A DNA stretch of 12,609 nucleotides from Archangium sp. (lineage in GTDB: Bacteria > Myxococcota > Myxococcia > Myxococcales > Myxococcaceae): contig QKJM01000968.1 of assembly GCA_003249315.1 (NCBI GenBank), positions 1-12,609 of the forward strand. The letters are read 5' to 3'. Of the stretch, positions 1 to 12,609 are shown piece by piece. The first letter of the stretch is position 1. The number at the start of each line of letters is the position of its first letter. The position numbers and the translations under genes are program-made. The notes under the pieces are model-generated. The model was given only the letters and a program-made list of their open reading frames with translations. It made no database searches and was not told where the DNA came from.

Positions 1-703
1 CCAGACCCGCTCCATCGGTGCTCATCCGAGTGAGGAGGGACACCAACGCGTCCGCATCCTCCTCGGACAGGCGCCGGGTGAGGATGAGACCATCCGACAA
101 CGTGGACTCGGTGAAGAGGAAGGGGCGCAACCGACGCTCGTCGAGCCCCACATAGGTGGCCAGGCTGGCCCGCAGGGAGCACTCGTCCGGGTGGTTGGCG
201 AAGAGCGCCGCCACGTCCGCCTCCCCGGAGAGCACCGCATCCAGCGCCTTGCGGTACGTACCGTGGAAGCGCTGCTCGCGGAACACCTCGTCCGGGAACA
301 TCCCCCGCGACTCCAGGTGCCGCACCGGCAGCAGATACCCGCCAGTGGAGCGCGGAGCCACCCAGGCCACACGCTTTCCCTTCAGGGTCTCCAGGGTGAG
401 CGGCTCCTCCGCCCGACACACCAGCGCCGAGTGGTAGTACCAGCTCCCCGAGCGCACCGATCGCAGCACCGCCCGCGCCCGCGGCTCGAAGGCCGCACAC
501 TGCTCCGCCGTGCCCCAGGCCATCTCCACCCGACCCGCCGCCAGCTCCTCCTCCAGCAACTCGTAGGTGGGCGCCAGCTCCACCACCACCGGCCGCCCCA
601 TTCTCTCGGACAGCACCCGCCCGAAGAGATCGACCTTGACGTGCTCCCGCACCTCCCCCAGCGAGGGGTAGAGCAGGAATCGGATGGGGCTGGATGAAGA
701 CAT
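1..703 (-). CDS. Partial CDS (N-terminal ~234 aa; continues beyond the left edge). Cytoplasmic PhnD/SsuA-like periplasmic-binding-protein-fold domain protein (phosphonate-binding-type PBP2 fold) with no signal peptide.
   Basis: Hand translation of the minus strand from ATG at 703..701 gives MSSSSPIRFLLYPSLGEVREHVKVDLFGRVLSERMGRPVVVELAPTYELLEEELAAGRVEMAWGTAEQ...GKRVAWVAPRSTGGYLLPVRHLESRGMFPDEV...ALFANHPDE... with no stop down to position 2. It is missing from the ORF track because it has no stop in the window. G/C at third codon positions is very high. A GGAGGA Shine-Dalgarno (complement of 715-720) lies about 11 nt upstream, and an in-frame GTG at 706..704 is an alternative start. Pattern resembles the Phosphonate-bd/PhnD family. 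No N-terminal hydrophobic signal sequence. Confidence 0.6.
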   Translation of the reverse strand, partial: MSSSSPIRFLLYPSLGEVREHVKVDLFGRVLSERMGRPVVVELAPTYELLEEELAAGRVEMAWGTAEQCAAFEPRARAVLRSVRSGSWYYHSALVCRAEEPLTLETLKGKRVAWVAPRSTGGYLLPVRHLESRGMFPDEVFREQRFHGTYRKALDAVLSGEADVAALFANHPDECSLRASLATYVGLDERRLRPFLFTESTLSDGLILTRRLSEEDADALVSLLTRMSTDGAGL

Positions 704-871: not shown

Positions 872-3800
872 CTAGCGAGGCTGCATGGTCTGCAGGAGTT
901 GCAGCGCCTCCGTCACCGCCTTCCAGACCTCCATCGCCTTGAGGCTCTCGTCCCCACCCTGGAGCGTCCGCTTCGCCAGCCGCTCCAGTGGCTCGAGCGC
1001 GCTCTCCACCAACAAGAGCTGCTTGCCCAGCTCCGCCGGGAGGGGCGCGCCTCTCGGAGCAGGCATCGGCGAGCGATCGGCCATCAGCTTCATCGCTTGC
1101 GACATCTGATCCATGTAGCGCCCCAGATCCGCCGGAGGCACCGGCGCCTGCGTCGCCGGCCGCTCCGCCACCGTCCTCACCACCTGCGTCAACTGCTCCA
1201 TCAGCGGCGTCAGATCCGTCGTCGACGCCGCCGGTCGATCCGAGAGCGCCTTCAGCAGGTGCGCCAGGTGCTTCAGGTAGGGCGTCAGATCCGGCCCCTG
1301 CACCACCGGCGCCGGCAGCTCCCGACTCGCCAGCTCCAGCAACGCCTCCCTCAGCCCATCCAACCTCGGCGTCACCTCCGCCATGGGGGGAGGCCCCTCC
1401 GACTTGCGCGACACCTCCGCCGCCCGCACCACCGCGTCCCTCACCGAGCCAAGCTGCTCCTCGATGGCTCCGAGCTGGCCCGTCACCCGAGCCACCGGAT
1501 CATCCTCCTTCCCGCCCATCCTCTTCACCCGCGCGAAGCCCTGCTTGATCTCCTCCCAGCGCTTCGCCTGCTCCGGCTTCAGCCGCCCCCGCAGCTCCTG
1601 CAGCTTCAGCAGGTTCTGCTCCGCCGCCGTCGTCAGCGTCTGCGACTCACCCTGGTAGTGGTCGTCGAGGAGCCGCTCCAGCTCATCCTCCGTCATGGCC
1701 GCGACCACCTTCTCGGTGATCTTGCTCATGTTGCGGTAGCTGCCCTGCAGCTTGAAGGGAGGCTCCGTCCGGAAGCGATCGTCCTGCGCCGCCGAGGCGA
1801 TGTACTCCAGGTTCACCTTCAGCAGCACCTCCTGCACCTTGAACAGCCGCTGGAACACCGCGACGATCTCCTGCAGCTCCGCCGCCGCGTACCCGTGCGA
1901 CAGCTCACCACTGGGCACCTCCTCGCCCTTCGCCATGCGGATCAGCTTGTAGATGTCTCCCGGCTCCCGCGTCGCCAGAGGCTGCAGCACCGCGCTCGAC
2001 GTCAGCGCGTTCTCGACGTAGCTGAGCGCGAACAGCTCCTCCTTGCCGTCGAGGATGTCACCCAAGTTGTAGGTGTCCGCGCGGTTGGCGAGCATGTCCG
2101 GAATCCGGAAGCGATCGCCCGTCTCCGTGTATGGGTTGCCCGCCATCACCACGCAGAACTTCTTGCCCCGCAAGTCATACGTGCGCGTCCGCCCGTTCCA
2201 CACGCCTTCGATCCGGCGCTGACCGTCGCACAGCGAGATGAACTTCTGCAGGAGCTCCGGATCCGTGTGCTGGATGTCATCGAGATAGAGCATCACGTTG
2301 TTGCCCATCTCGAAGGACAGGTTGATGCGCTCCACCTCCTGGCGCGAGGTGGCGTTGGGCGCCTCGGCCGGATCCAACGACTTCACCGAGTGGCCCAGCG
2401 CCGGGCCGTTCACCTTCACGAAGGTGAGCCCCAGCCGGCTGGCCACGTACTCCATCAACGTCGTCTTGCCGTAGCCCGGAGGGGACATGAGCAGCAGCAT
2501 GCCCATCCGGTCCGTGCGCTTGCCCTCCCCCGCCGCGCCGAGCTGCTTGGCGAGGTTGGCGCCGATGAGGGGCAGGTACACCTCGTCGATCAGCTTGTTG
2601 CGCACGAAGGACGAGAGCACCTTCGGCGTGAACTCCTCCAGCCGCAGCTTGCGGCGCTCGCGCTCGAGCAGATCACGCAGCAGCGCCCGGTACGCGTGGT
2701 AGGCCGGCACGCGCTCCTGCCGGAAGGCGCTCAGCCTCTCCAGGAACTCGTCCAGCCGGAGTGACAGCGTCCGGTCGTGGATGCGCGGGTGCTGACCCAG
2801 CAGCCCCGTCACCTCGGTGGAGGTGAGCGCGCCGGCCACCTCCCGATCCACCTTGCGCTCGGTGAGCAGCACCACCGCGGCCTCGGCCGCCACGTGCCCG
2901 GCGGAGCCCGGACCGCCCTCGCGCCGCGCCAGGAACGCGTCCACCCAGGCCCGCACCACTCGCACCCGCTCGGGCAGGTTCTTCGCCAGGCCCCGCATGT
3001 CCTCCTCGAAGGCCGAGCGCGTGTTGGAGCGATCCAGGTGCGCCAGCAGCGCCTCCGCGAGCGCCGACGCCTCCCCGCTGGTGGTGAAACGAGGACGCTC
3101 CACCCCGAGCTCCTCCACCAGGTAGCGCCCGGCCAGCCGCGCCTCGGCGGGGCCATGCGCCACGCCCGTCGCCTCGAGGAAGGCGCCGATGCGCCCGCCC
3201 AGCTCGTCGCCCAGGGCCAGCAGCTCCGCGGCCTCGCCGAAGGCCTGGCGCAGCCGGTGCAGGCTGCGCGCCCGCCGGTGGAAGAGCGCCTTGCCCTCCG
3301 CGTCTCCGTCGAAGGCCCAGAAGAGGACCGCCCAGGCGCGCGGCGTGGGAGCGAAGCGCAGCAGCCCCGCCCCCGTGTGCATGCCCAGCAGCTTCTCCAG
3401 GATGGCCGCCGCGTCCGCGTCGTGGATGCCGCGCTCATAGCCCTCGTCGTACTTGTCCGAGGCGTACGCGCGCACCTGCTCCAGCAACCCGTTGCTCTCC
3501 AGCGACGCCTGGTGCAGCGCCGCCAGCGTCAGGCTGCCCTTCCCCTCCTCCGCGGCGAACAGCACCTGCGCCGCCAGGTACTCGGCCCGGTACACCTCCG
3601 GTATCTCCGAGACCAGGTGCTGCTCCCAGAGCGCGCGGTACTTCTCCAGCTCCGGATCCTCCAGCTTCTGCGCGTAGTCCGTGCCGGTGAGCTGCATGTA
3701 CAGCGCCCCGTCACGCGGCAGCAGCGTCAGCTCCAGCGTCTGCGTGTTGACGTTGAAGCGGTGCTTGCCCAGTTTGATCACCGGGGCGCCCGAGCCCTCC

Positions 3801-6364
3801 TCGAAGAGCTCCTGCCTGTCGCGAAGCGCGCGCAGCGCGTCCTGGCGCGCCGTCTTCAGCCGGCTGAGCACCTCGTCCGAGCGAACGCTGTCCTGGAGCT
3901 CCAGGAGCTGATCGGCGAGCTGCCGCAGCTTCTGCACCATGGAGTCGGACGCGAAGTAGGAGTTGAGCTCGTCCTCGGCCTTGAAGGACTTCGCCCGCCG
4001 GTTGACGCCAGAGAGGATGCGCTCGGCGGCCCCGAAGAGGTTCTGCGCCCGCCTCTGGCGCTCGTCCAGCAGCGTCTGCTTCTTCTGCCCGAAGGCCTCG
4101 AAGATCTCCTCGCGCTTCTCCGTGAGATCGCCGAGGAACTCGTCGAACTCGCCGAAGCGGCCCTCCATCTCCTCGAGCTGGACGGTGATGCGCGAGAGGC
4201 CCTCGTCACACTTCTCCGGGGTGTCCGCCACCGAGAGGGCGCTCTCCACCGCCTGGCCGAGCAGCTTGAACTGGGCGCCGAACTCCACCCGCTTCTCGCG
4301 GCCCACCAGCTCCTTGCGCTTGACGGAGAGGCCCGCGCGCACCCGGTTGAGGCGACTGAAGAGCTCGGAGATGCCCTCGAGGATGCGGGCGCGCGCCAGC
4401 GGATCCCCCACCTGCAGCCCGCCCACCGTCTCGCTCAGCCCCTCCAGCCCCTTGCCCACCTGCCCGACGTCCTCGCCCAGCGGCTCCAGTTCCTGCGTCG
4501 TCTGGATGGGCTCCAGCTTCTCCAGCAACTCCTCCAGCCGGGTGGCCAGCGGCGCCAGGGCCTCCCCCTGTTGGAGGAACTGCACGGCGTCGGTGCTGAC
4601 GCGGTCCGTCTCCTCGACGACCTGCTTCTCCAGGGCCTCGAGCCGCGCCACGTCGACGTAGCGCACCTCCTTGAGGGTGATGAGGTGGCCGCGCTGCTTG
4701 CGCAGCTCCGACAGGGCGTTCATGTAGCCCTCTGCGTTCTGCAGCTCCTCGGGCCGCACGCGCAGCAGCACCTTCTCCTGGGCCTCCGAGGCCTCGGCGA
4801 TGGCCTCCTCCGCCCGGCTGCGCAGCGCGAGCACCTTCTCGAACTCGTCGATGATGAGCTCGGAGGTTCGGTGCAGCGTGGAGATGGACTCGGTCAGCCC
4901 CACCTCCTCGTGCGAGAGCCAGTAGTAGGCGTCCGGCATGCGCGTGGCCGCCGAGGCCAGATCCTCATAGGTGCGCCGGGAGGGCTTCTCCGTGCGGGCC
5001 ATCCGCACCAACGTCAGCGCGTCGGAGATGCCGCGCACCAGCTCCGCGTTACCCACCTTCCCCAGGTAGCCGGGCGCCGGAGGCTGCTGCGCCGCGTGCT
5101 CGTCGGAGAAGAAGGGCGTCTGCCACACCTGCATGGGGTGGACGCGAGTGGGCTCGTTGGAGGTGGCGCGGAAGAGCGCCAGTTGCCCGTCATCGAAGAT
5201 GCTGAAGCCGTGCCCCAGCAGCGGGTTCTGCACCTCCTTGCGCACCAGGTTGTACGGGAAGAGGACGTAGCTGCCTTCGTCCCTGCGGTGGAAGACGTAC
5301 AGCACGTCCTCCCCGTTGGGCGACTTGAGCGCCCGCTTGAACTCCAGGCCGTCGCCCACGTCCTCGAAGAGCTTGTAGTCCCCCGTCTGCAGGTAGTAGC
5401 CGCCCGGGAAGACGATGCCCTGATCCTCCGGCAGCCGCACGCACGCATGGCCGATGGCGTCGATGCGCACCACGTGCTGGGTGCGCGTGTTGAACACCAG
5501 GTAGCGGTGCTTCTGCTCGCGGAAGGGCAGCACCCGCAGGAGGATGAGGGCCCCCACCTTCGCGTAGGCGAACTCGGCGTCGTCCAGCGATTGATCCGGA
5601 TCATCCACCGGCTCGCGGTAGATGCCCCGCCCGTCCGCGGTGTTGTCCTCCACCTTGACGGTGAGATCGCCCTTCACCGTCTCCACGAACACCTGATCCA
5701 GGATGTTGACGTGGGGGTGCTCGCCCAGGACGTAGTCGTCCCGCGTGGCCACCGTCCACTCGAAGTCATGCGACGGCGGGAAGACGTGATCGCGCTCGCC
5801 CTGGTTGTCGATGTAGGAGGCGTTGCCCTCCTTGTCGAGCGAGAAGCGGAAGACCTTGATGTCCCGCAGCGACTGGCCCGTCTGGAAGATGGCCAGCAGC
5901 TTGTTCTTGTCGCGCCGAAGCTGCAGGAGCTTCGCGTCCTTGTAGTACTTGTAGAGTTCGCCGAAGTCCTTGACGAAGCGCGGATCCTGCAGGAAGCCAC
6001 CCGCCTCGGTGGTGGGAACCTCGCCGAAGTCGAAGCCCTCGGACGTCCGCTCGAACCTGTGCAGCGAGAAGACGTCCGCCACGGACGTCTCCTTCTTCAG
6101 CCCGATGAAGACGTTGTAGCCGAAGAGCAGGTACTTCCCGATGTTGACGATGTCGCGCGGGACGCAGTTGTTCTCCGTGCGCACCCGCTCGTTGCCGATG
6201 ACGGCGAGCTCCGTGCCTCCGAAGAGCTTCTTCCGCCGCTCGTTGAGATCCGTGGCCTTCGCGCCGAGCGTCTCCGCCTGCGCCAGCAGGCGCGCGCGGA
6301 TGACCTCGTAGCTACCGCCTTCCAGCGTGGCCTCTCCCGCGGGCGTGGGGGTTTCTGTTGCCAT
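872..6364 (-). CDS. Giant (~1830 aa) soluble multidomain protein with an N-terminal beta-rich ~480-aa region, a long alpha-helical/coiled-coil middle region, and one clear AAA+ ATPase module of the AAA_5 / MoxR / McrB-like type at about residues 1290-1450. A ~350-aa helical, Pro-containing C-terminal region follows.
   Basis: ORF track gives 872..6412 minus, 1846 aa. P-loop LLLMSPPGYGKTTLMEYV fits the xPPGxGKT AAA consensus. Walker-B-like NVMLYLDDIQHT parallels the hhhhDEINRA motif of AAA_5/MoxR. CVVMAGNPYTETGDRFRIPDMLANRA parallels the MoxR sensor-1/Arg region NPxExxGxxxLPxAxxDRF. No TM segments or signal peptide. Preferred start is ATG at 6364..6362 (MATETPTPAGEATLEGG...). The track start at 6412 is a GTG preceded by GGGAGAGGGA, which lies inside a hairpin. 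TAG stop at 874..872. Confidence 0.8.
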   Translation of the reverse strand: MATETPTPAGEATLEGGSYEVIRARLLAQAETLGAKATDLNERRKKLFGGTELAVIGNERVRTENNCVPRDIVNIGKYLLFGYNVFIGLKKETSVADVFSLHRFERTSEGFDFGEVPTTEAGGFLQDPRFVKDFGELYKYYKDAKLLQLRRDKNKLLAIFQTGQSLRDIKVFRFSLDKEGNASYIDNQGERDHVFPPSHDFEWTVATRDDYVLGEHPHVNILDQVFVETVKGDLTVKVEDNTADGRGIYREPVDDPDQSLDDAEFAYAKVGALILLRVLPFREQKHRYLVFNTRTQHVVRIDAIGHACVRLPEDQGIVFPGGYYLQTGDYKLFEDVGDGLEFKRALKSPNGEDVLYVFHRRDEGSYVLFPYNLVRKEVQNPLLGHGFSIFDDGQLALFRATSNEPTRVHPMQVWQTPFFSDEHAAQQPPAPGYLGKVGNAELVRGISDALTLVRMARTEKPSRRTYEDLASAATRMPDAYYWLSHEEVGLTESISTLHRTSELIIDEFEKVLALRSRAEEAIAEASEAQEKVLLRVRPEELQNAEGYMNALSELRKQRGHLITLKEVRYVDVARLEALEKQVVEETDRVSTDAVQFLQQGEALAPLATRLEELLEKLEPIQTTQELEPLGEDVGQVGKGLEGLSETVGGLQVGDPLARARILEGISELFSRLNRVRAGLSVKRKELVGREKRVEFGAQFKLLGQAVESALSVADTPEKCDEGLSRITVQLEEMEGRFGEFDEFLGDLTEKREEIFEAFGQKKQTLLDERQRRAQNLFGAAERILSGVNRRAKSFKAEDELNSYFASDSMVQKLRQLADQLLELQDSVRSDEVLSRLKTARQDALRALRDRQELFEEGSGAPVIKLGKHRFNVNTQTLELTLLPRDGALYMQLTGTDYAQKLEDPELEKYRALWEQHLVSEIPEVYRAEYLAAQVLFAAEEGKGSLTLAALHQASLESNGLLEQVRAYASDKYDEGYERGIHDADAAAILEKLLGMHTGAGLLRFAPTPRAWAVLFWAFDGDAEGKALFHRRARSLHRLRQAFGEAAELLALGDELGGRIGAFLEATGVAHGPAEARLAGRYLVEELGVERPRFTTSGEASALAEALLAHLDRSNTRSAFEEDMRGLAKNLPERVRVVRAWVDAFLARREGGPGSAGHVAAEAAVVLLTERKVDREVAGALTSTEVTGLLGQHPRIHDRTLSLRLDEFLERLSAFRQERVPAYHAYRALLRDLLERERRKLRLEEFTPKVLSSFVRNKLIDEVYLPLIGANLAKQLGAAGEGKRTDRMGMLLLMSPPGYGKTTLMEYVASRLGLTFVKVNGPALGHSVKSLDPAEAPNATSRQEVERINLSFEMGNNVMLYLDDIQHTDPELLQKFISLCDGQRRIEGVWNGRTRTYDLRGKKFCVVMAGNPYTETGDRFRIPDMLANRADTYNLGDILDGKEELFALSYVENALTSSAVLQPLATREPGDIYKLIRMAKGEEVPSGELSHGYAAAELQEIVAVFQRLFKVQEVLLKVNLEYIASAAQDDRFRTEPPFKLQGSYRNMSKITEKVVAAMTEDELERLLDDHYQGESQTLTTAAEQNLLKLQELRGRLKPEQAKRWEEIKQGFARVKRMGGKEDDPVARVTGQLGAIEEQLGSVRDAVVRAAEVSRKSEGPPPMAEVTPRLDGLREALLELASRELPAPVVQGPDLTPYLKHLAHLLKALSDRPAASTTDLTPLMEQLTQVVRTVAERPATQAPVPPADLGRYMDQMSQAMKLMADRSPMPAPRGAPLPAELGKQLLLVESALEPLERLAKRTLQGGDESLKAMEVWKAVTEALQLLQTMQPR

Positions 6365-6415
6365 CGTCAGTTCACCGGGATGGGTTGGAACCAGGAATGC
6401 GAGCACCCTCACCCC

Positions 6416-6460
6416 GTCCCTCTCCCAGAGGGAGAGGGGTTCTTCCCTCGGTGGAGGGAC
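6416..6460 (-). other. Two tandem GC-rich stem-loops in the 140-nt flotillin-to-ATPase spacer, with no U-tract. Possible RNA stability/attenuation or processing element; not a canonical intrinsic terminator.
   Basis: Perfect 9-bp inverted repeat CCCTCTCCC (6418-6426) / GGGAGAGGG (6430-6438) with a 3-nt loop, extendable by G-U pairs at 6416-6417 and 6439-6440. Second hairpin TCCCTC (6444-6449) / GAGGGA (6454-6459) with loop GGTG. Neither is followed by a T-run on either strand. Confidence 0.4.
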
Positions 6461-6504
6461 AGGGGCGAGGGTACCGGGACTGCTTGGATCGCCAGGTGAT
6501 CAGA

Positions 6505-8676
6505 TCACTCGGTGCTCTTGTCGCCGCGGAGCGGCTCCGCCTCCGAGAGCGTCTTCATCTGGTTGGCCGCCACCGCCGGCGCCGCCTGCGCGGGCACCAT
6601 GCGGTGCAGCATCGCCGCCATCGCCAGGTTCTGCGCGTCGTTGGTCAGCCCCGGCCTGGAGAGGATCTCCTTGAGGTCCGCCGGCAGATCCTTCTCGCCG
6701 TTGAGGTAGCCGGCGAAGGCCTTGCGCAGCGTCTCGCCGTGCTCCAGCGCGCCATCCACGGACTGGCCCACGGAGATGGCCTTGATGAAGCGCTCGAAGA
6801 ACTGGCCGTCGCCGCCGACGATGTTGACCTTCGCGTTGCCCATCGTCTCGGAGAGCACCTTGGCCTGGGCCTCGGCGATCTCCTTGCGCACGCGGATCGT
6901 CTCCAGCTCCACGTCGCGCTCCTTCTGCAGGCGCAGGCGGAACTCCTCGTGCTCGCGGGTGACGCCATCCAGGGCCTTCATGGACTCGGCCTTCTCGGCC
7001 AGGCCGCGGGCCTCGGCCAGCAGCTTCTCCTCGATCCCCTTGGCCTCGGCGAGCTGGCGCTCGCGGATGGCGATGGCCTCGGCCTCGCCGCGCTTCTGCA
7101 TGGCCTGGGCCTCGGCCTCCTGGATGCGGGCCTGGGCCATGCCCTTCTCCTGCGCACCCGCGGCCTCGGCCAGCAACTGCTCCTTGGCGGCGACGGCCTG
7201 GGCCATGCCCTGCTTCTCGATGACGGCGGCCTCGGCCTCCTTCACCCGCACCTGGGCCATGCCCTGCTTCTCGACGGCCTGCGCGTCCGCTTCCTTCACG
7301 CGCACCTGCGCCAGTCCCTCGGCGGCGGCCTCGGCCTGGACGCCCTCGGCCAGCCGCATCTTCGCCTTGGCCGTCTTGTCCGAGGCCTCCAACTCGGCCT
7401 CGGCCAGGGTCAGCTTCTCCTTGGCGGCGAACTTGGCCACCTCGTTGCTGGCCTCGGCGGCCTTGATGTCCTTGACCAGCTTCTCCTGCGCCTGCGCCTC
7501 GGCGGTGATGAGCAGCGCGTCCTTCTTGCGCGTGGCCTCGGCCTTCACGCGCAGATCCTTGATGCGCTCCTCCTCCTCGGCCACCGTCTTCTCCACGGCG
7601 ATGCGCGCGCGCACCACGTCGGCGATGGCCTTCTTCTCCGCCTCGAGCGCCTTCTCCTTGGCGATGCGCTGCAGCTCCACCTCGCGCTCGCGGTTGATGG
7701 CCTCCAGGGCGCGATCCTTCTCCACGCGCTCGGACTCCACGCCCACCACGCGCTCGCGGTTCTTCTGGGCCACCTCCACCTGGCGCTGCTTGTTCTCCTC
7801 GTTGATGAGGATCTCCTCCTGGGCCTTGATGCGCGCCAGGGAGGCCTTGGCGTGCTCCTCGGCCTTCACCCGCTCGGCCTCGGCGACCTCCCGGGCCTGG
7901 ATGCTGTCGATCTCCCGCTTCTGCTTGGCGGCGGCCTCGGAGCGCTGGCGCTCGAGCGCGAAGATGGCCTCGTCCGACTCGACGTTGCGCTTGGTGATGG
8001 CCATGCGCTCGTTCTGCCGGAACTCATTGGTCTCGACGTTGCGCAGCGAGGTCAGCTCGGTGATCTTCCGGATGCCCTGGGCGTCGAGGATGTTGTCCTT
8101 GTCCAACATCTCGATCGGGGTCTGCTCCAGGAAGTCGATGGCGCAGTCCTCGAGCATGTAGCCGTTGAGGTCCTTGCCGATGACCTTGATGACCTCTTCC
8201 TTGATCTCCTCGCGGTGGGTGTAGAGCTGCTCGAAGTCGAAAATCTTTCCCGCGGTCTTGAGGGCCTCGGAGAACTTGGCCTCGAAGAGGTTCTCGAGCG
8301 TCTCCTGGTGGCTGGCGCGGGCGCAGCCGATGGACTGAGCCACCTTGAGCACGTCCTCGCGGGTCTTGTTGACCCGGACGAAGAAGGTGACCTTGATGTC
8401 CGCGCGGATGTTGTCCTTGCAGATCAACCCCTCCTTGCCGCGGCGGTCGATGTCGACCGTCTTGAGGGAGATATCCATCACCTCGGCGCGGTTGATGATG
8501 GGCCACACCACCGCGCCAGTGAAGGTGACGACCGGATCACCCTTGAAGGGGTTGATGATCAGCGCCCGTCCCTGATCCACCTGCCGGTAGAACCTGGAGA
8601 CGATGAACGCCGCGCAGAAGATGAAGAAGAGGATGCCGCCAATGGCGAGCAGGACTGTGACGATCGGAAGTTCCAT
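6505..8676 (-). CDS. Flotillin / SPFH (band-7, PHB) domain protein of the YqiK/FloT type with one N-terminal TM helix, an SPFH domain, and an unusually long E/A/K/R-rich coiled-coil region (723 aa total).
   Basis: ORF track 6505..8718 minus. N-terminus MELPIVTVLLAIGGILFFIFCAAFIVSRFYRQVDQGRALIINPFKG...DISLKTVDIDRRGKEGLICKDNIRADIKVTFFVRV is typical of a flotillin TM plus SPFH start. EA-rich heptad-like coiled coil runs through the middle. Flotillin-like C-terminal region ...NIVGGDGQFFERFIKAISVGQS. Preferred start is ATG at 8676..8674 (Met15 of the track ORF) with AAGGA just upstream; the track start at 8718 is GTG. TGA stop at 6507..6505. Confidence 0.88.
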   Translation of the reverse strand: MELPIVTVLLAIGGILFFIFCAAFIVSRFYRQVDQGRALIINPFKGDPVVTFTGAVVWPIINRAEVMDISLKTVDIDRRGKEGLICKDNIRADIKVTFFVRVNKTREDVLKVAQSIGCARASHQETLENLFEAKFSEALKTAGKIFDFEQLYTHREEIKEEVIKVIGKDLNGYMLEDCAIDFLEQTPIEMLDKDNILDAQGIRKITELTSLRNVETNEFRQNERMAITKRNVESDEAIFALERQRSEAAAKQKREIDSIQAREVAEAERVKAEEHAKASLARIKAQEEILINEENKQRQVEVAQKNRERVVGVESERVEKDRALEAINREREVELQRIAKEKALEAEKKAIADVVRARIAVEKTVAEEEERIKDLRVKAEATRKKDALLITAEAQAQEKLVKDIKAAEASNEVAKFAAKEKLTLAEAELEASDKTAKAKMRLAEGVQAEAAAEGLAQVRVKEADAQAVEKQGMAQVRVKEAEAAVIEKQGMAQAVAAKEQLLAEAAGAQEKGMAQARIQEAEAQAMQKRGEAEAIAIRERQLAEAKGIEEKLLAEARGLAEKAESMKALDGVTREHEEFRLRLQKERDVELETIRVRKEIAEAQAKVLSETMGNAKVNIVGGDGQFFERFIKAISVGQSVDGALEHGETLRKAFAGYLNGEKDLPADLKEILSRPGLTNDAQNLAMAAMLHRMVPAQAAPAVAANQMKTLSEAEPLRGDKSTE
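7090..7310 (-). repeat. In-frame tandem repeat of about 54-66 nt, roughly 4 imperfect copies, inside the flotillin coiled-coil region. It encodes 18-22-aa units of the form EKQGMAQVRVKEAEAxAV.
   Basis: Repeated plus-strand unit CCTGGGCCATGCCCTGCTTCTCGA(TGA)CGGC...CTCCTTCAC(C/G)CGCA visible at 7131-7196, 7197-7250 and 7251-7304, with a degenerate copy near 7090-7130. The protein shows GMAQVRVKEADAQAVEKQGMAQVRVKEAEAAVIEKQGMAQAVAAKEQLLAEAAGAQEKGMAQARIQEAEAQAMQKRG. Confidence 0.7.
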
Positions 8677-8778
8677 GTCCTTGTCCGAGCAGAGAAGACC
8701 AGAGGGGGCTTGTACCACGCGACCGGAGACCCCCGTGAGACCCCCCCGGTGCGCCAGAGAAATGTCATGTGAGGCGAC

Positions 8779-9558
8779 TCACCGCGTGCGCATCCTGTCG
8801 CGGGCGACGGCCGCCGCGGTGAGCGGATCCTTCAGGTGCTGCAGTTCCTCGGGCAGGAGCCAGTCCACGGGCTCCACCTCGTAGGCGTCACGGGACGGAT
8901 CATACCCGAGGATCAGCGCCCGATCTCCCCGCTGGAGTTCGTTCGCCTTTTCGCAGAAGACGTGAAGCAGGAGGCCGGCGCCGCCATCCTCGAAGTTGGC
9001 CTGGCCGAACCCGCCGTCCACCTTGCTGCTGGAGATGACGCACACACGCCCCAGGAGCGAGTCGCGGCGAGGGGCCTGGTTCACGGCGAAGACGGGGCGC
9101 AGGGGCCGTACGGCCAGGCCCGCGAGCCCGGTGCCCACCACGAGGCACAGCACGGACAGCACCCCACCGACGAGCACGCCTGGCAGCGCGCCGAGCAGGT
9201 TGCTCGCCGGACCCGACAGCGCCAGCGACAGCAGCCAGGAGAGGAAGATGGCGAAGCTGAGGGACACCGTCACCGGCACGCCGCCGAAGCCGAGCACCTC
9301 GAGGAAGCTGGCCCCCGCCTTGGCGCCTCCCTCCATCGCGCCCTTGGCCCCGGCCTCCATCGCGCCCTTCACCCCGCCCTCCAGGGCCTCGCCCGCCCCG
9401 GCCTTCGCGCCGAGCGCGAAGTCGCCCAGGTCTCCATCCAGGAGATCGATTCCCACCGCGCCGATCATGACGGTCAGCCAGTAGCCGAGCACCACTCCCA
9501 TGGGGATGGTGAAGAGCACGGTCGGGAAACTGAGGATGGTGTGGAGGAATTCGGTCAT
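8779..9558 (-). CDS. NfeD/YqiJ-like flotillin-associated membrane protein with three predicted TM helices, a Gly/Ala-rich loop and a C-terminal OB-fold beta-barrel domain.
   Basis: ORF track 8779..9675 minus (the 9675 start is GTG). The first in-frame ATG at 9558..9556 gives MTEFLHTILSFPTVLFTIPMGVVLGYWLTVMIGAV (TM1). Further hydrophobic helices at FAIFLSWLLSLALSG and LPGVLVGGVLSVLCLVVGTGLAGLAV. C-terminal ...LLGRVCVISSSKVDGGFGQANFEDGGAGLLLHVFCEKANELQRGDRALILGYDP matches the short-NfeD OB-fold pattern. It sits immediately upstream of the flotillin gene, the same order as E. coli yqiJ-yqiK. TGA stop at 8781..8779. Start choice is uncertain because there is no clear SD for either start. Confidence 0.72.
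   Translation of the reverse strand: MTEFLHTILSFPTVLFTIPMGVVLGYWLTVMIGAVGIDLLDGDLGDFALGAKAGAGEALEGGVKGAMEAGAKGAMEGGAKAGASFLEVLGFGGVPVTVSLSFAIFLSWLLSLALSGPASNLLGALPGVLVGGVLSVLCLVVGTGLAGLAVRPLRPVFAVNQAPRRDSLLGRVCVISSSKVDGGFGQANFEDGGAGLLLHVFCEKANELQRGDRALILGYDPSRDAYEVEPVDWLLPEELQHLKDPLTAAAVARDRMRTR
9315..9400 (-). repeat. Short in-frame tandem repeat of about 24-27 nt inside the NfeD-like gene, encoding a Gly/Ala/Lys-rich loop.
   Basis: Plus-strand CCTCCATCGCGCCCTTGGCCCC / GGCCTCCATCGCGCCCTTCACCCCG / CCCTCCAGGGCCTCGCCC units. The protein shows EGGVKGAMEAGAKGAMEGGAKAGA. Confidence 0.5.
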
Positions 9559-9737
9559 CGGGCTTCGGCCAAGGAGAGGGAACGGAGTGTATTCCAGGGG
9601 TTGGGGGGCCTGCCTAGCCCCTTCCGGTCGATTCCCCGCCCGCCATCCCCCCAGGCGGAAGGGGCGGGACGCCACGGTGGGGAGAAGGCGCCGCTGAACA
9701 TGCTCAGGGGAAGCGAGAACCCGCTAGGCTCCGGCCC
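9559..9737. promoter_or_regulatory. Divergent intergenic region of about 180 bp between the NfeD-like gene (minus) and the 2OG oxygenase gene (plus). It should contain both promoters and carries a GC-rich inverted repeat.
   Basis: Inverted repeat CCCGCCC (9635-9641) / GGGCGGG (9662-9668) with a ~20-nt spacer. Weak -35-like TGAACA at 9695-9700. No strong sigma-70 consensus is visible, as expected in high-GC genomes. Confidence 0.35.
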
Positions 9738-10448
9738 GTGAGCGAGTACGTCACCCACCGCGCGGCCCTGAAGGGGGCGCAGCTGGAGTCCCTGAGGGAG
9801 GCGCTGCTCTCCTCGCGCTTCGTGGGGCGGAGCCAGTTGATGGGGACGTTCCAAGGCAGCCGGGGCTTCGCGTTCATCTTCACGGAGGCGGGTCGGGCGA
9901 CGCTAGAGGCGCGCTTCCCCTTCCTCCGGGAGTACCTGGCGCTGGCGATGGAGCCGGCGAGCTGGCGCGGGCTGCTGCCCTGGCGGGAGCGGCTGTTCGG
10001 ACCGAGGCCGGAGCGCCGGAGGCCCAACGCCTTCTATCTGAACCTCCTGCTGGTGGAACCCGGCAAGAGCGTGGGCCGGCACATCGACGCGACGCTTCAA
10101 GGCCCGAGCGGCGTGGAGGGGGCGGTGCCAGAGCACGTGAGCGTGCTGTACCTGGCCGTTCCGAGGGGAGCGAATGGCGGCGAGCTGGTGATGACGCGCG
10201 GGCAGGAGTGGCTGGGCGTGGTGCGACCGAGAGAGGGGATGCTGGTACACTTCCGGGGAGACCTGATGCACGAGGTACGGCCCTTCACGGGAGCTCTCGA
10301 GGGGGCGCTGCGGGCGAGCCTGGTCTGCGAGCAGTACGCCTTCGAGCCCGAGGCCCTGGCACGACTGCCCGAGTTCCGGATCCAATCCAAGGCGGGTTTC
10401 ACGGCGTACCTGGAGGAGCACCGCGCCCGGACTACGGCTGAGACATGA
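9738..10448 (+). CDS. 2-oxoglutarate/Fe(II)-dependent dioxygenase superfamily protein (prolyl-4-hydroxylase-like fold).
   Basis: ORF track 9738..10448 plus, 236 aa, GTG start. Facial-triad pattern HxD...H plus RxS in canonical spacing: VGRHIDAT (H-I-D), then about 60 aa later GDLMHEVRPF (distal His), then LRASLV (RxS 2OG-binding) about 15 aa further. The overlapping minus ORF 9903..10421 is a Q/R/L/P-rich shadow. TGA stop at 10446-10448. Confidence 0.7.
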   Translation: MSEYVTHRAALKGAQLESLREALLSSRFVGRSQLMGTFQGSRGFAFIFTEAGRATLEARFPFLREYLALAMEPASWRGLLPWRERLFGPRPERRRPNAFYLNLLLVEPGKSVGRHIDATLQGPSGVEGAVPEHVSVLYLAVPRGANGGELVMTRGQEWLGVVRPREGMLVHFRGDLMHEVRPFTGALEGALRASLVCEQYAFEPEALARLPEFRIQSKAGFTAYLEEHRARTTAET

Positions 10449-11799
10449 ACGTCTCGAACTCGAGCCGTTCCATCTTGCGCGAGAGCACCCCCAGCCCCGT
10501 GAGCGCCGTCACGTACACCGCCCCCGCATAGCCGTACCCGTAGAAGCGCACGCCCAGCTCCAGTGTCAGCAGGGTCAGCCCCACGTTCAGCAGCAGCAGC
10601 AGCCCCGTCAACCCCAGCGCCACCCTCCGCTGATCCAGGTAGAAGAAGACGTTCAGCACCGCCAGCAGCAACACCTGCCCTCCCGCCGCGACGAGATCCA
10701 CCCCATACAGCGGCAGGTAGTACGGAGAGAGCCCCCACGCCTCCAGGACCCGCGGCCCCGCGAGCAGCAGCAGGAGGATCGTCAGCCCCTGCACCTTGAA
10801 GAGCTCCTCCAGCCCGCGGCGCACCGCCGCCACCATCCCCCCGCGCAGCCGCTCCAGCTCCCCCAGCTTCCCTCCCCTTCGCACCGAGGCGTAGAAGTCC
10901 GCGTGCTGCTCCGCGAAGTCCGTCTCTATCCGCACCAGGTACACCGCCATCCCCGGGATCGTCGAGAGGCACGCCAGGAACATCGGCAGGTCATACAGGA
11001 CCGACGCGCGCAGCGGCCCCAGCACCGCCTCCGAGGTGGACGGGTTGCACCAGAACAGCAGCTTGTCCGACCAGATGCCCAGGTTGTACAGCAGCCCCAC
11101 TCCCGCCAGCCCGTAGAGGGCCTGCCCCCTCCGCAGGAAGTCGAAGGACACCAGCCGCCTCAGGGGATGGCGACGCAGCACCAGCGCCAGCAGCGTCACC
11201 AGCATCCACCCCTGCCCCACCAGGAAGCCCGCGAGCAGCCCCTCCAGCCCGAAGGGCCTCAGCCCCAGCGCCGCCCCCACCGACAGCCCATAGCCGAGCA
11301 GGAACGTCCACAGCACCGCCCGGTACTCCTTCAGCCCCGAGAGCATCACCACCAGCACCCAGAGATCGCAGAGCACCACGAAGCACGACAGCAGCAGCAA
11401 CCGCACCGTCAGCGGCTCCCGGAACAGCAGCCCCAGCACCCCTCCCGCCAGCAGCGCGCTCCCCACCGTCGTCAGCCCCAGCGCCCCCAGCAGGTTCGGC
11501 AACACCCGCGCCGTCTTCCCCTCGTAGAGCCGATCCGCCACGAACCTCGACAGCAAGAGCTGCAGCGGCCCCGTCGCGATCAGCGAGCACGCCATCATCC
11601 ATGTGATCGACACCAGGAAGGGACTCGACACCACGCCCTTCTCACCGCCCGCTCCCAGCGCTCCGATCACCATCATCCCGCAGATGGAGAACACCCACGG
11701 GCCGGAGGAGATCAGCCTCGCGTACCCGTAACCCCTCAGAAGGCCCCAGAGGCTGTCGTCTCGGAAGAGCTTCCGCAGCTCGAACCCGATCCCCGCCAT
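10432..11799 (-). CDS. pelG: PelG-like polysaccharide exporter of the MOP/PST flippase superfamily, 12 predicted TM helices, ~455 aa.
   Basis: ORF track 10432..11856 minus. The internal ATG at 11799..11797 is preceded by GGGGAGG (complement of 11804-11810). It gives MAGIGFELRKLFRDDSLWGLLRGYGYARLISSGPW..., which I recognise as the characteristic PelG N-terminus (P. aeruginosa PelG is ~456 aa). Highly hydrophobic throughout, with a cytoplasmic loop ...ETDFAEQHADFYASVRRGGKLGELERLRGG. It follows a GT4 gene as in pelF-pelG. TAG stop at 10434..10432. Confidence 0.65.
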   Translation of the reverse strand: MAGIGFELRKLFRDDSLWGLLRGYGYARLISSGPWVFSICGMMVIGALGAGGEKGVVSSPFLVSITWMMACSLIATGPLQLLLSRFVADRLYEGKTARVLPNLLGALGLTTVGSALLAGGVLGLLFREPLTVRLLLLSCFVVLCDLWVLVVMLSGLKEYRAVLWTFLLGYGLSVGAALGLRPFGLEGLLAGFLVGQGWMLVTLLALVLRRHPLRRLVSFDFLRRGQALYGLAGVGLLYNLGIWSDKLLFWCNPSTSEAVLGPLRASVLYDLPMFLACLSTIPGMAVYLVRIETDFAEQHADFYASVRRGGKLGELERLRGGMVAAVRRGLEELFKVQGLTILLLLLAGPRVLEAWGLSPYYLPLYGVDLVAAGGQVLLLAVLNVFFYLDQRRVALGLTGLLLLLNVGLTLLTLELGVRFYGYGYAGAVYVTALTGLGVLSRKMERLEFETFMSQP

Positions 11800-12609
11800 G
11801 CCGCCTCCCCGAGCGCCCCCCGATAGATGGCCCGGTAGCTGTCGAACATCATCCACTCATCGTAATAGCGCTCCACGCGAGCAATCCCCGCTGACCGCGC
11901 CGCCCTCCACCTCCCCTCATCCGTCAGCAGCCCCAGCACAGCCCGCGCCGCCGCTTCCGGATCCGAGATCGGCACCACCTCCCCCGCCGCTCCCAGCGCC
12001 CTGTCGTCCTTTCCACTCCCCTCGATCAGCTCCCTGCACGCGCCCACGTCCGTGCTCACCGCTGGCAGGCCACTCGCGAAGCCCTCCAGCAACACCAGGG
12101 GAAGCGCCTCGCTGATGGAGGTGAGCATCAACAGTCCCAGCTTCGGCAGCACCGCGTCCGGCTTCTGGAAGCCCAGGAACCTCACCCGCTCCCCCAGTCC
12201 CAGGCTCTCCACCAGCCCCCGGCACTCCCTCGCGTACGCCACGTCCTCGTCCTCGGGGCCGATGATCCACCCCTCCGCCTCGGGCATCCGGTTGCACACC
12301 AGCCGCATCGTCCGGATGAAGGTGCGGATGTCCTTGATGGGCACCACCCGCCCCAGCAGCCCCACCACTGGAGGTACCCTCTCCGGCCGCGCCTCCCTCA
12401 ACGCCGCGAAGCGCCGCACCGCCACCCCGTTGGGCACCACCCGCGTCCTCTCTTCCGGCGCCCCGTCCCTCACCTGCCGCTGACGGTTGCCCTCGTACAG
12501 TGCCACGATCGGATCCGCCGCCGCGTACGTCATCCGCCCCAGCCCCTCGAAGAAGCGGATCCACAGCCGCCGCAGCGCCCCCAGCCCTCCCTGCTTCCCT
12601 CCCCCCTCC
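11736..12609 (-). CDS. pelF: Partial CDS (C-terminal ~290 aa; the N-terminus lies beyond the right edge). GT4-family (GT-B fold) glycosyltransferase, PelF-like.
   Basis: The frame of track ORF 11736..12533 stays open upstream to the window end (...EGGGKQGGLGALRRLWIRFFEGLGRMTYAAADPIV...). The C-terminal Rossmann half carries the GT4 E-x7-E motif in ISEALPLVLLEGFASGLPAVSTDVGACRELIE, plus RVRFLGFQKPDAVLPKLGLLMLTS. TGA stop at 11738..11736, overlapping the pelG-like start by 64 nt. Confidence 0.7.
   Translation of the reverse strand, partial: EGGGKQGGLGALRRLWIRFFEGLGRMTYAAADPIVALYEGNRQRQVRDGAPEERTRVVPNGVAVRRFAALREARPERVPPVVGLLGRVVPIKDIRTFIRTMRLVCNRMPEAEGWIIGPEDEDVAYARECRGLVESLGLGERVRFLGFQKPDAVLPKLGLLMLTSISEALPLVLLEGFASGLPAVSTDVGACRELIEGSGKDDRALGAAGEVVPISDPEAAARAVLGLLTDEGRWRAARSAGIARVERYYDEWMMFDSYRAIYRGALGEAAWRGSGSSCGSSSETTASGAF

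Follow-up and report, generated by a model that had tools for sequence, protein, structure and literature searches.

What could a protein of 1830 residues with one ATPase core do next to a bacterial flotillin? The question is raised by a gene in a 12,609-nucleotide stretch of DNA from Archangium sp. (Myxococcota; contig QKJM01000968.1, assembly GCA_003249315.1), which was analyzed over its full length and is called the window here. Domain content and gene neighborhood indicate that this giant ATPase belongs to the DUF3686-AAA family, named "DNA repair ATPase" by NCBI, and that it is encoded by the third gene of an operon with the order yqiJ-like NfeD gene, yqiK-like flotillin gene, ATPase gene. 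The initial annotation of the gene had described a single MoxR-like core with an Asp-Asp Walker B, and this part stands; it had also described an unrecognized N-terminal domain and suspected hidden AAA lobes, and these two points do not. The operon comprises the following features:

872..6364, minus strand: coding sequence of the giant ATPase, 1830 aa from the ATG at 6364, stop codon at 872-874
6365..6504, minus strand: flotillin-ATPase intergenic region, 140 nt, with a strong GC-rich RNA hairpin
6505..8718, minus strand: membrane protein of the flotillin family (YqiK-like), 737 aa, next gene upstream of that for the ATPase; start codon uncertain
8779..9558, minus strand: YqiJ/NfeD-like membrane protein, starting at M40 (9558) according to the family alignment

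The G+C content of the window is ~68%, and spurious long open reading frames (ORFs) arise in such DNA, one example being a 1240-aa ORF opposite the strand of the giant ATPase gene. The ATPase ORF is a genuine gene rather than a chance product of this kind, judging from its full-profile match to Pfam DUF3686 (PF12458; E=2.9e-207, profile positions 3-448 of 448) and its thousands of homologs: among 8000 candidates scored, 5959 database proteins match it at E<=1e-10, and identity with Myxococcaceae proteins is 73-85%. An alternative GTG upstream, at 6412, would give an ORF of 1846 aa (872..6412), the form in which the protein of this contig was deposited. Since the N termini of homologs follow the consensus "MA..(12-14 aa)..LEGGSYEV", the ATG at 6364 is favored as the start.

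Family membership is supported by a full DUF3686, a DUF7902, one AAA module, end-to-end similarity, and the gene order; the motifs that define the AAA module of the family (SPPGYGKTT, DDIQH, MAGNPYTE, and PDMLANRAD) are all present. A DUF3686 search of 1.84 billion cluster representatives returned 784 clusters (50% identity) at E<=1e-3. Full-length members have 1500-2000 aa, the ATPase is found in at least 586 species genomes from five phyla (one genome scanned per species), and the mean pairwise identity of the ATPases across compared loci is ~53%, in alignments of >1,500 residues. The initial annotation had allowed that the protein might turn out to belong to a well-characterized family with known function; the family is catalogued, but no experimental function was found, and literature searches on DUF3686, PF12458, "DNA repair ATPase" with flotillin, and flotillin with MoxR yielded no experimental paper.

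To identify the partners, we set them against the YqiK and YqiJ sequences of Escherichia coli MG1655. The flotillin-like protein is 30% identical to YqiK over 435 aa (BLASTP, E=1e-32); its sequence combines a hydrophobic segment at the N terminus with an EA-rich coiled coil, and it gives a weak NCBIfam FloT match. The profile of the YqiJ-like family aligns with YqiJ at an hhalign probability of 95% (E=4e-8), and the YqiJ/NfeD-like ORF of the window extends to a GTG at 9675. Pfam gave no match to flotillin-like or YqiJ-like proteins even at E<=10, either in the window or in the Xenorhabdus littoralis locus L054 (7532-9742 and 6850-7476), and a PDB sequence search returned no matches for these partners. 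Automated annotation therefore probably leaves this subfamily "hypothetical".

We then surveyed the context of the ATPase gene in 83 loci, 80 of which have usable upstream sequence; the best 80 loci come from Myxococcota, Actinomycetota, Gammaproteobacteria, Planctomycetota, and Acidobacteriota. In 78/83 loci (78/80 with usable upstream sequence), the ATPase gene is preceded on its own strand by a gene for a flotillin homolog, which is immediately adjacent in 77 of them and 6 kb away in the other (L018); a YqiJ-like gene lies upstream of the flotillin gene in 72/83. Three of the five exceptions without flotillin are contigs that start inside or at the ATPase gene. The gaps between operon genes are short and often consist of overlaps of a few bases (start codons were chosen by script). 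The pairwise-identity matrices of ATPase and flotillin, taken without control for species phylogeny, correlate with r=0.93, which fits inheritance of the two proteins as a unit. In E. coli K-12, yqiJK occurs with no gene for the ATPase; therefore, the ATPase is accessory to a subset of yqiJK-type operons. A flotillin-ATPase fusion was considered for loci L012 and L076 and rejected, as direct translation revealed a stop codon between the genes. In X. littoralis, the ATPase gene is directly followed by one for a rhomboid intramembrane protease (L054, 15210-15776), which is not a conserved neighbor.

The 140 nt between the flotillin and ATPase genes fold into a hairpin (CCCUCGCCCCUGUCCCUC...GAGGGACGGGGUGAGGG) with a minimum free energy of -70.9 kcal/mol (z=-4.8), and none of 200 shuffled sequences was as stable. 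It has no Rfam match. The hairpin might set the flotillin:ATPase ratio, as an attenuator between the two cistrons or an element of mRNA stability; alternatively, it might be a palindrome of the REP type. Nothing relevant came from scanning the window for Rfam families, tRNAs, and promoters/terminators, and a sigma-54 consensus was not found upstream of the operon, matches elsewhere in the window being at chance level.

The catalytic part of the giant ATPase is a single AAA+ module, whose features are as follows:

1685..2539, minus strand: AAA+ module, aa 1276-1560, alpha/beta core and lid
2459..2485, minus strand: Walker A, SPPGYGKTT (aa 1294-1302), with K1300 and T1301
2264..2290, minus strand: Walker B variant, LYLDDIQHT (aa 1359-1367), with D1362, D1363, Q1365, and H1366
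2078..2137, minus strand: sensor region NPYTETGDRFRIPDMLANRA (aa 1410-1429), with the likely sensor-1 N1410 (MAGNPYTE) and a putative arginine finger, R1428 (PDMLANRAD)
1727..1750, minus strand: LQGSYRNM, a putative sensor-2 (R1544) of the MoxR "GxSxR" type

All peptides quoted in the initial annotation are present in the translation, among them one from the N-terminal domain, YVLFPYNL...FRAT (aa 366-401, window 5162-5269). Two AlphaFold2 (AF2) models were built from 84-sequence alignments, one for residues 1-700 (mean confidence, as predicted local distance difference test [pLDDT], 86.8) and one for residues 691-1830 (pLDDT 84.2). According to the latter, the alpha/beta P-loop core spans aa 1290-1433 and is followed by the lid and further helices. 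Matches to Pfam AAA, AAA_22, and AAA_5 are confined to one region, aa ~1290-1416, and a motif scan of all 1830 aa found one GK[ST] and one hhhhD[DE]. Both results agree with the earlier observation that SPPGYGKTT is the lone P-loop of the protein.

Motif conservation was assessed in an alignment of 68 representatives of >=1500 aa, whose DUF3686 domains are 33-62% identical to that of the giant ATPase. SPPGYGKTT is invariant in all informative full-length representatives, the sole exception being a frameshifted entry; its first position is Ser throughout the family, not Gly/Ala, which corrects the previous reading of the motif. The Asp-Asp reading of Walker B (LYLDDIQHT) holds, the pair being fixed across the family: D1362 and D1363 are kept in 68/68 informative sequences, and Q1365 and H1366 are kept in 68/69. 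By this measure, DDIQH is a fixed family signature rather than a local degeneration. N1410 occurs in 68/69 sequences and R1428 in 69/69, and their likeness to MoxR/MCM motifs suggests the sensor-1 and arginine-finger roles. In LQGSYRNM, which would act as sensor-2, Q1540, G1541, S1542, Y1543, R1544, and M1546 are invariant in the full-length family alignment.

Since K1300/T1301, D1362/D1363, N1410, R1428, and R1544 are all conserved, the alignment argues for a nucleotide site that is working and under selection. In such an otherwise complete and strongly selected site, the Asp-Asp pair does not look like decay toward a pseudo-enzyme. Rather, it suggests slow or partner-triggered hydrolysis, which would suit a regulated switch or timer and not a fast motor. 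There is precedent among other AAA+ proteins with a DD Walker B, such as DnaA (IDDIQ), which still hydrolyze ATP, slowly and when triggered.

Which AAA+ clade does this module belong to? Pfam AAA_5 matches it with 25.1 bits against a cutoff of 22 bits, over profile positions 2-126 of 139; PF00004 scores higher but spans only profile positions 1-68 of 131. The AF2 model contains a pre-sensor-1 beta-hairpin (strands aa 1384-1389 and 1392-1397) just before beta4 and N1410, and its best solved neighbors are CbbQ and NorQ, both MoxR proteins, followed by dynein and midasin; the MoxR-type lead is a margin of ~3 Z units, obtained from a predicted structure. Assignment to the MoxR/AAA_5 clade, as first proposed for this core, is thus supported by the AAA_5 match, the hairpin, and the nearest structures. 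Searches of PDB with sequence and profile returned matches limited to Walker A and no solved structure for the family. Classical AAA membership (Cdc48, FtsH, Vps4) was rejected because PF00004 matches only in part and the pre-sensor-1 hairpin is present.

The module nevertheless departs from typical MoxR proteins. The latter (CbbQ, NorQ, and RavA) have ~270-500 aa, a Walker B of the form hhhhDE(I/V)NR, and usually a VWA partner, whereas the giant ATPase has 1830 aa, reads MLYLDDIQH (DD, Q, and H being invariant in the family), carries its own predicted propeller and rod, and has flotillin/NfeD as its putative partners. No VWA gene was found among the window proteins scanned with Pfam; one lies near the M. 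stipitatus copy and is not among the conserved neighbors. A candidate for the helix-2 insert of the MoxR clade is a conserved loop of 18 residues between beta2 and alpha2 (NGPALGHSVKSLDP), although the model predicts no beta-hairpin in it; on reading the sequence, no aromatic-hydrophobic-Gly pore loop was seen there.

Midasin and dynein have six concatenated AAA lobes per chain, and degenerate lobes of this kind had been suspected in the giant ATPase. We reject them: Pfam, the AF2 models, the motif scan, and hhalign all give a single core. In hhalign, the AAA profile reached probabilities of 0.1-0.6% against those of the N-terminal, middle, and C-terminal parts, and in the models residues 421-1275 and 1442-1830 are helical save for two small all-beta units without beta-alpha-beta alternation.

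Outside the ATPase module, the protein has these parts:

4922..6265, minus strand: DUF3686 domain, aa 34-481; a helix (aa 18-48), then ~6-7 four-stranded blades (aa 54-415)
3806..4921, minus strand: helical rod, aa 482-853, of spectrin-like three-helix bundles
4310-4564, minus strand: DUF7902, aa 601-685, inside the helical rod
2756..3781, minus strand: middle domain, aa 862-1203, AF2 pLDDT mostly >90
875..1414, minus strand: C-terminal tail, aa 1651-1830, Pro/Ala/Leu-rich, low model confidence

The N-terminal ~480 aa, previously called unrecognized, are thus Pfam DUF3686, predicted here to be a divergent beta-propeller, although the propeller result is weak; coiled-coil as well as beta-propeller repeats have already been described at the N terminus of the family (PMC11237479). 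Likewise, the helical middle had been said to contain no nameable motif, yet Pfam finds DUF7902 there (E=2.9e-23). The spectrin-like rod is ~430 residues long in the model and reaches ~aa 853. The middle domain consists of a five-strand unit (aa 862-901), a helical domain (aa 926-1168), and three strands (aa 1174-1203), after which come the pre-AAA helices. Its helical domain holds the motif EGYERGxHDxDA (aa 974-986, window 3407-3445, minus strand), which the model places, with high confidence, in a loop leading into a helix. G979, H981, and D984 of this motif are invariant across phyla in the full-length family alignment, as are D849, G866, and E920, and the motif might form a contact surface for the AAA module or serve as a second functional site. 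The C-terminal tail has several segments with pLDDT <50 and is poorly conserved beyond Myxococcota; homolog matches in other phyla stop near aa 1630-1710.

The family has a representative in a studied operon of Pseudomonas aeruginosa. ORF clustering revealed two further upstream genes in 15 proteobacterial loci and one further downstream gene in 8 loci, which Pfam identifies as DUF2170 (CesT-like), PspA, and PLD genes. The order DUF2170-PspA-YqiJ-flotillin-ATPase-PLD is also that of P. aeruginosa, where it stands beside recJ and a lasB-like protease gene. The published primer PA14_16190/20_F matches exactly inside the P. aeruginosa DUF3686-AAA gene of 1746 aa, which is therefore bacE (PA3728) of bacABCDEF; a second published primer, PA14_16180/90_R, has no match in that locus at <=1 mismatch. 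The giant ATPase is 51% identical to BacE (PA3728/PA14_16190) over 1641 aa and, by this alignment, is its ortholog. Like BacE, it has DUF3686, DUF7902, and AAA and is encoded directly after the genes for a YqiJ-like protein (BacC) and a flotillin (BacD/PaFlo3). The bacABCDEF "biofilm-associated cluster", a Psp-like operon, adds the DUF2170/CesT-like BacA, the PspA-type BacB, and the PLD-type BacF and has a proposed sigma-54 promoter, whereas the window operon is the three-gene core without a sigma-54 consensus.

Several properties of the P. aeruginosa operon have been published. Wallart et al. (2024) found bacA-F to be cotranscribed and proposed the sigma-54 promoter from sequence, and mutation of bacA raised BacE protein 8.9-fold (PMC10948618). 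An SPFH/NfeD pair has been identified, consisting of PaFlo3 (BacD) and the short NfeD PA14_16160. PA3728-PA3732 are induced by phage infection (PMC12041424), and PA3728 is among the recurrently mutated genes of cystic-fibrosis isolates. Ravi et al. (2024) had already described, by comparative genomics, a full operon and an "abbreviated operon", the latter matching that of the window; their study is without AAA+ clade, motif analysis, or structure (PMC11237479). Biochemistry or structure of the ATPase is absent from these papers on the bac operon and its flotillin context. The family is catalogued and widespread, its flotillin context is already published, and the window gene is a further member. 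What we add is the clade, the invariance of DDIQH and of the site, the single lobe, the weak propeller prediction, and the explicit BacE orthology.

What, then, might the giant ATPase do? We give an even chance to a function as a regulated AAA+ remodeler of flotillin/NfeD (and PspA) membrane assemblies that does not act on DNA. The AAA+ module would bring about oligomerization, as in the hexamers of MoxR proteins, and the propeller and rod would dock on the cytoplasmic flotillin/NfeD scaffold, the propeller being its own substrate- or adaptor-binding unit on a long spectrin-like arm. ATP binding and hydrolysis, regulated by the DD site, would assemble, open, or disassemble this scaffold, presumably during envelope stress; PspA polymers might also be remodeled where PspA is co-encoded. 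The FtsH-HflK/C and Vps4-ESCRT-III pairings offer parallels. There too, an AAA+ protein is coupled, genetically or physically, to an SPFH cage or to an ESCRT-III-type polymer (ESCRT-III/PspA), a functional analogy in which homology to the giant ATPase is limited to the AAA+ fold: FtsH and Vps4 belong to classical AAA clades, FtsH having a protease and a transmembrane anchor and Vps4 having an MIT domain. A more specific version is possible but tentative, namely, a dedicated ATP-driven remodeler of flotillin cages in the form of a ~1.2-MDa hexamer whose six propeller-tipped spectrin-like arms would hold on to the cytoplasmic flotillin/NfeD assembly, with the DD site as a slow timer set off by partners.

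Several observations weigh against a remodeler of flotillin. Contact with flotillin is implied by gene order alone, and the correlation with flotillin noted above includes no correction for species phylogeny. In P. aeruginosa, deletion of paFlo3 (bacD) gave marginal phenotypes only. The beta2-alpha2 loop without an aromatic pore-loop motif makes a threading mechanism doubtful. No purified, solved, or phenotype-bearing deleted family member was found in the literature searched. Finally, the remaining two exceptions in our survey, L001 (Sorangium sp.) and L060 (a Labilithrix metagenome-assembled genome), have a full upstream flank with neither a flotillin nor a YqiJ gene. In L001, the place of flotillin is taken by a divergent gene of 979 aa without Pfam match. 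The ATPases of these two loci may be paralogs that work with a different partner.

Four other explanations must be set against this one. It is possible, if rather unlikely, that the ATPase acts as an unfoldase or extractase, removing damaged membrane proteins from flotillin microdomains and delivering them to a protease in the manner of FtsH-HflK/C. SPFH cages that enclose AAA+ machines are precedented (HflK/C-FtsH and prohibitin-m-AAA), the flotillin context is conserved, and in Xenorhabdus the rhomboid protease gene follows that of the ATPase. However, the ATPase itself has no protease domain and the operon no conserved protease, the aromatic-hydrophobic-Gly pore loop was not seen in the beta2-alpha2 loop, and MoxR-clade proteins are generally not threading unfoldases.

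That the DD Walker B marks a dead pseudo-ATPase, serving only as a nucleotide-binding scaffold, we regard as unlikely. In its favor, the canonical catalytic Glu is missing in every family member. Yet sensor-1, the putative arginine finger, and the putative sensor-2 arginine are invariant across phyla, and these residues have their roles in hydrolysis and in sensing between subunits, not in binding; this, like the slow hydrolysis by DnaA, disfavors a mere scaffold.

An anti-phage or abortive-infection motor, that is, a MoxR/McrB-like NTPase that senses infection at the membrane and has a PLD effector in some genomes, appears distinctly unlikely. The phage induction of the operon and the PLD partner would fit such a role. 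PspA-type operons respond to many envelope insults, however, so that induction by phage is expected of them anyway; PADLOC gives only a P-loop-level match to IetA (E ~1e-3 over 30 residues), and the operon of the window has no effector. Moreover, the P. aeruginosa protein cluster has 3222 members at 90% identity and the synteny in Myxococcaceae is stable, which looks like the behavior of a core gene rather than of a variable defense island.

A DNA repair ATPase is barely credible. This role is backed by labels only (the product names in NCBI and UniRef and, in Pfam, the description "ATPase involved in DNA repair"), by weak RuvB_N/RuvB profile matches over the P-loop only, and by recJ three genes downstream in P. 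aeruginosa and recF and gyrB upstream in Xenorhabdus, an adjacency that is not conserved across loci. Scans with Pfam, NCBIfam, and PADLOC detected neither a DNA-binding nor a nuclease or helicase domain, the conserved neighbors are the membrane proteins flotillin, YqiJ/NfeD, and PspA, and no experimental support was found in the literature. The database name "DNA repair ATPase" thus has no support and is probably misleading.

The other genes of the window lie on both sides of the operon. A 168-aa ORF (191-697, plus strand) is convergent with the ATPase gene and has no Pfam, NCBIfam, or PADLOC match; it is kept downstream of the ATPase in the Cystobacter/Archangium loci L006 and L009 with 58-69% identity. 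On the other side, at 9738-10448 (plus strand), there is a divergent 2OG-Fe(II) oxygenase with a match to the PADLOC "CAS-associated 2OG" model (E=1.4e-59). Its synteny with the operon is limited to Myxococcaceae (L003-L005), and it is therefore probably not part of the flotillin-ATPase system. Beyond it lie a PelG gene (10432-11856, minus strand; Pfam E=1.5e-139) and, toward the end of the window, an ORF at 11736-12533 (minus strand) that resembles a PelF glycosyltransferase by sequence reading only. Together they would represent the end of a locus for Pel exopolysaccharide; as they overlap by 121 nt, the start codon of PelG is probably overcalled.

The mechanistic role of bacterial flotillins is still debated, and to our knowledge no energy-consuming flotillin partner is known in any organism. 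If the giant ATPase does remodel flotillin assemblies, it would be for flotillin the counterpart of Vps4 for ESCRT-III, or of FtsH inside HflK/C. The family offers a large, flotillin-linked handle for studying how flotillins work, and its invariant DDIQH, set in an otherwise complete MoxR-type site, provides a clean case in which to see how Asp in place of Glu may tune the AAA+ cycle.

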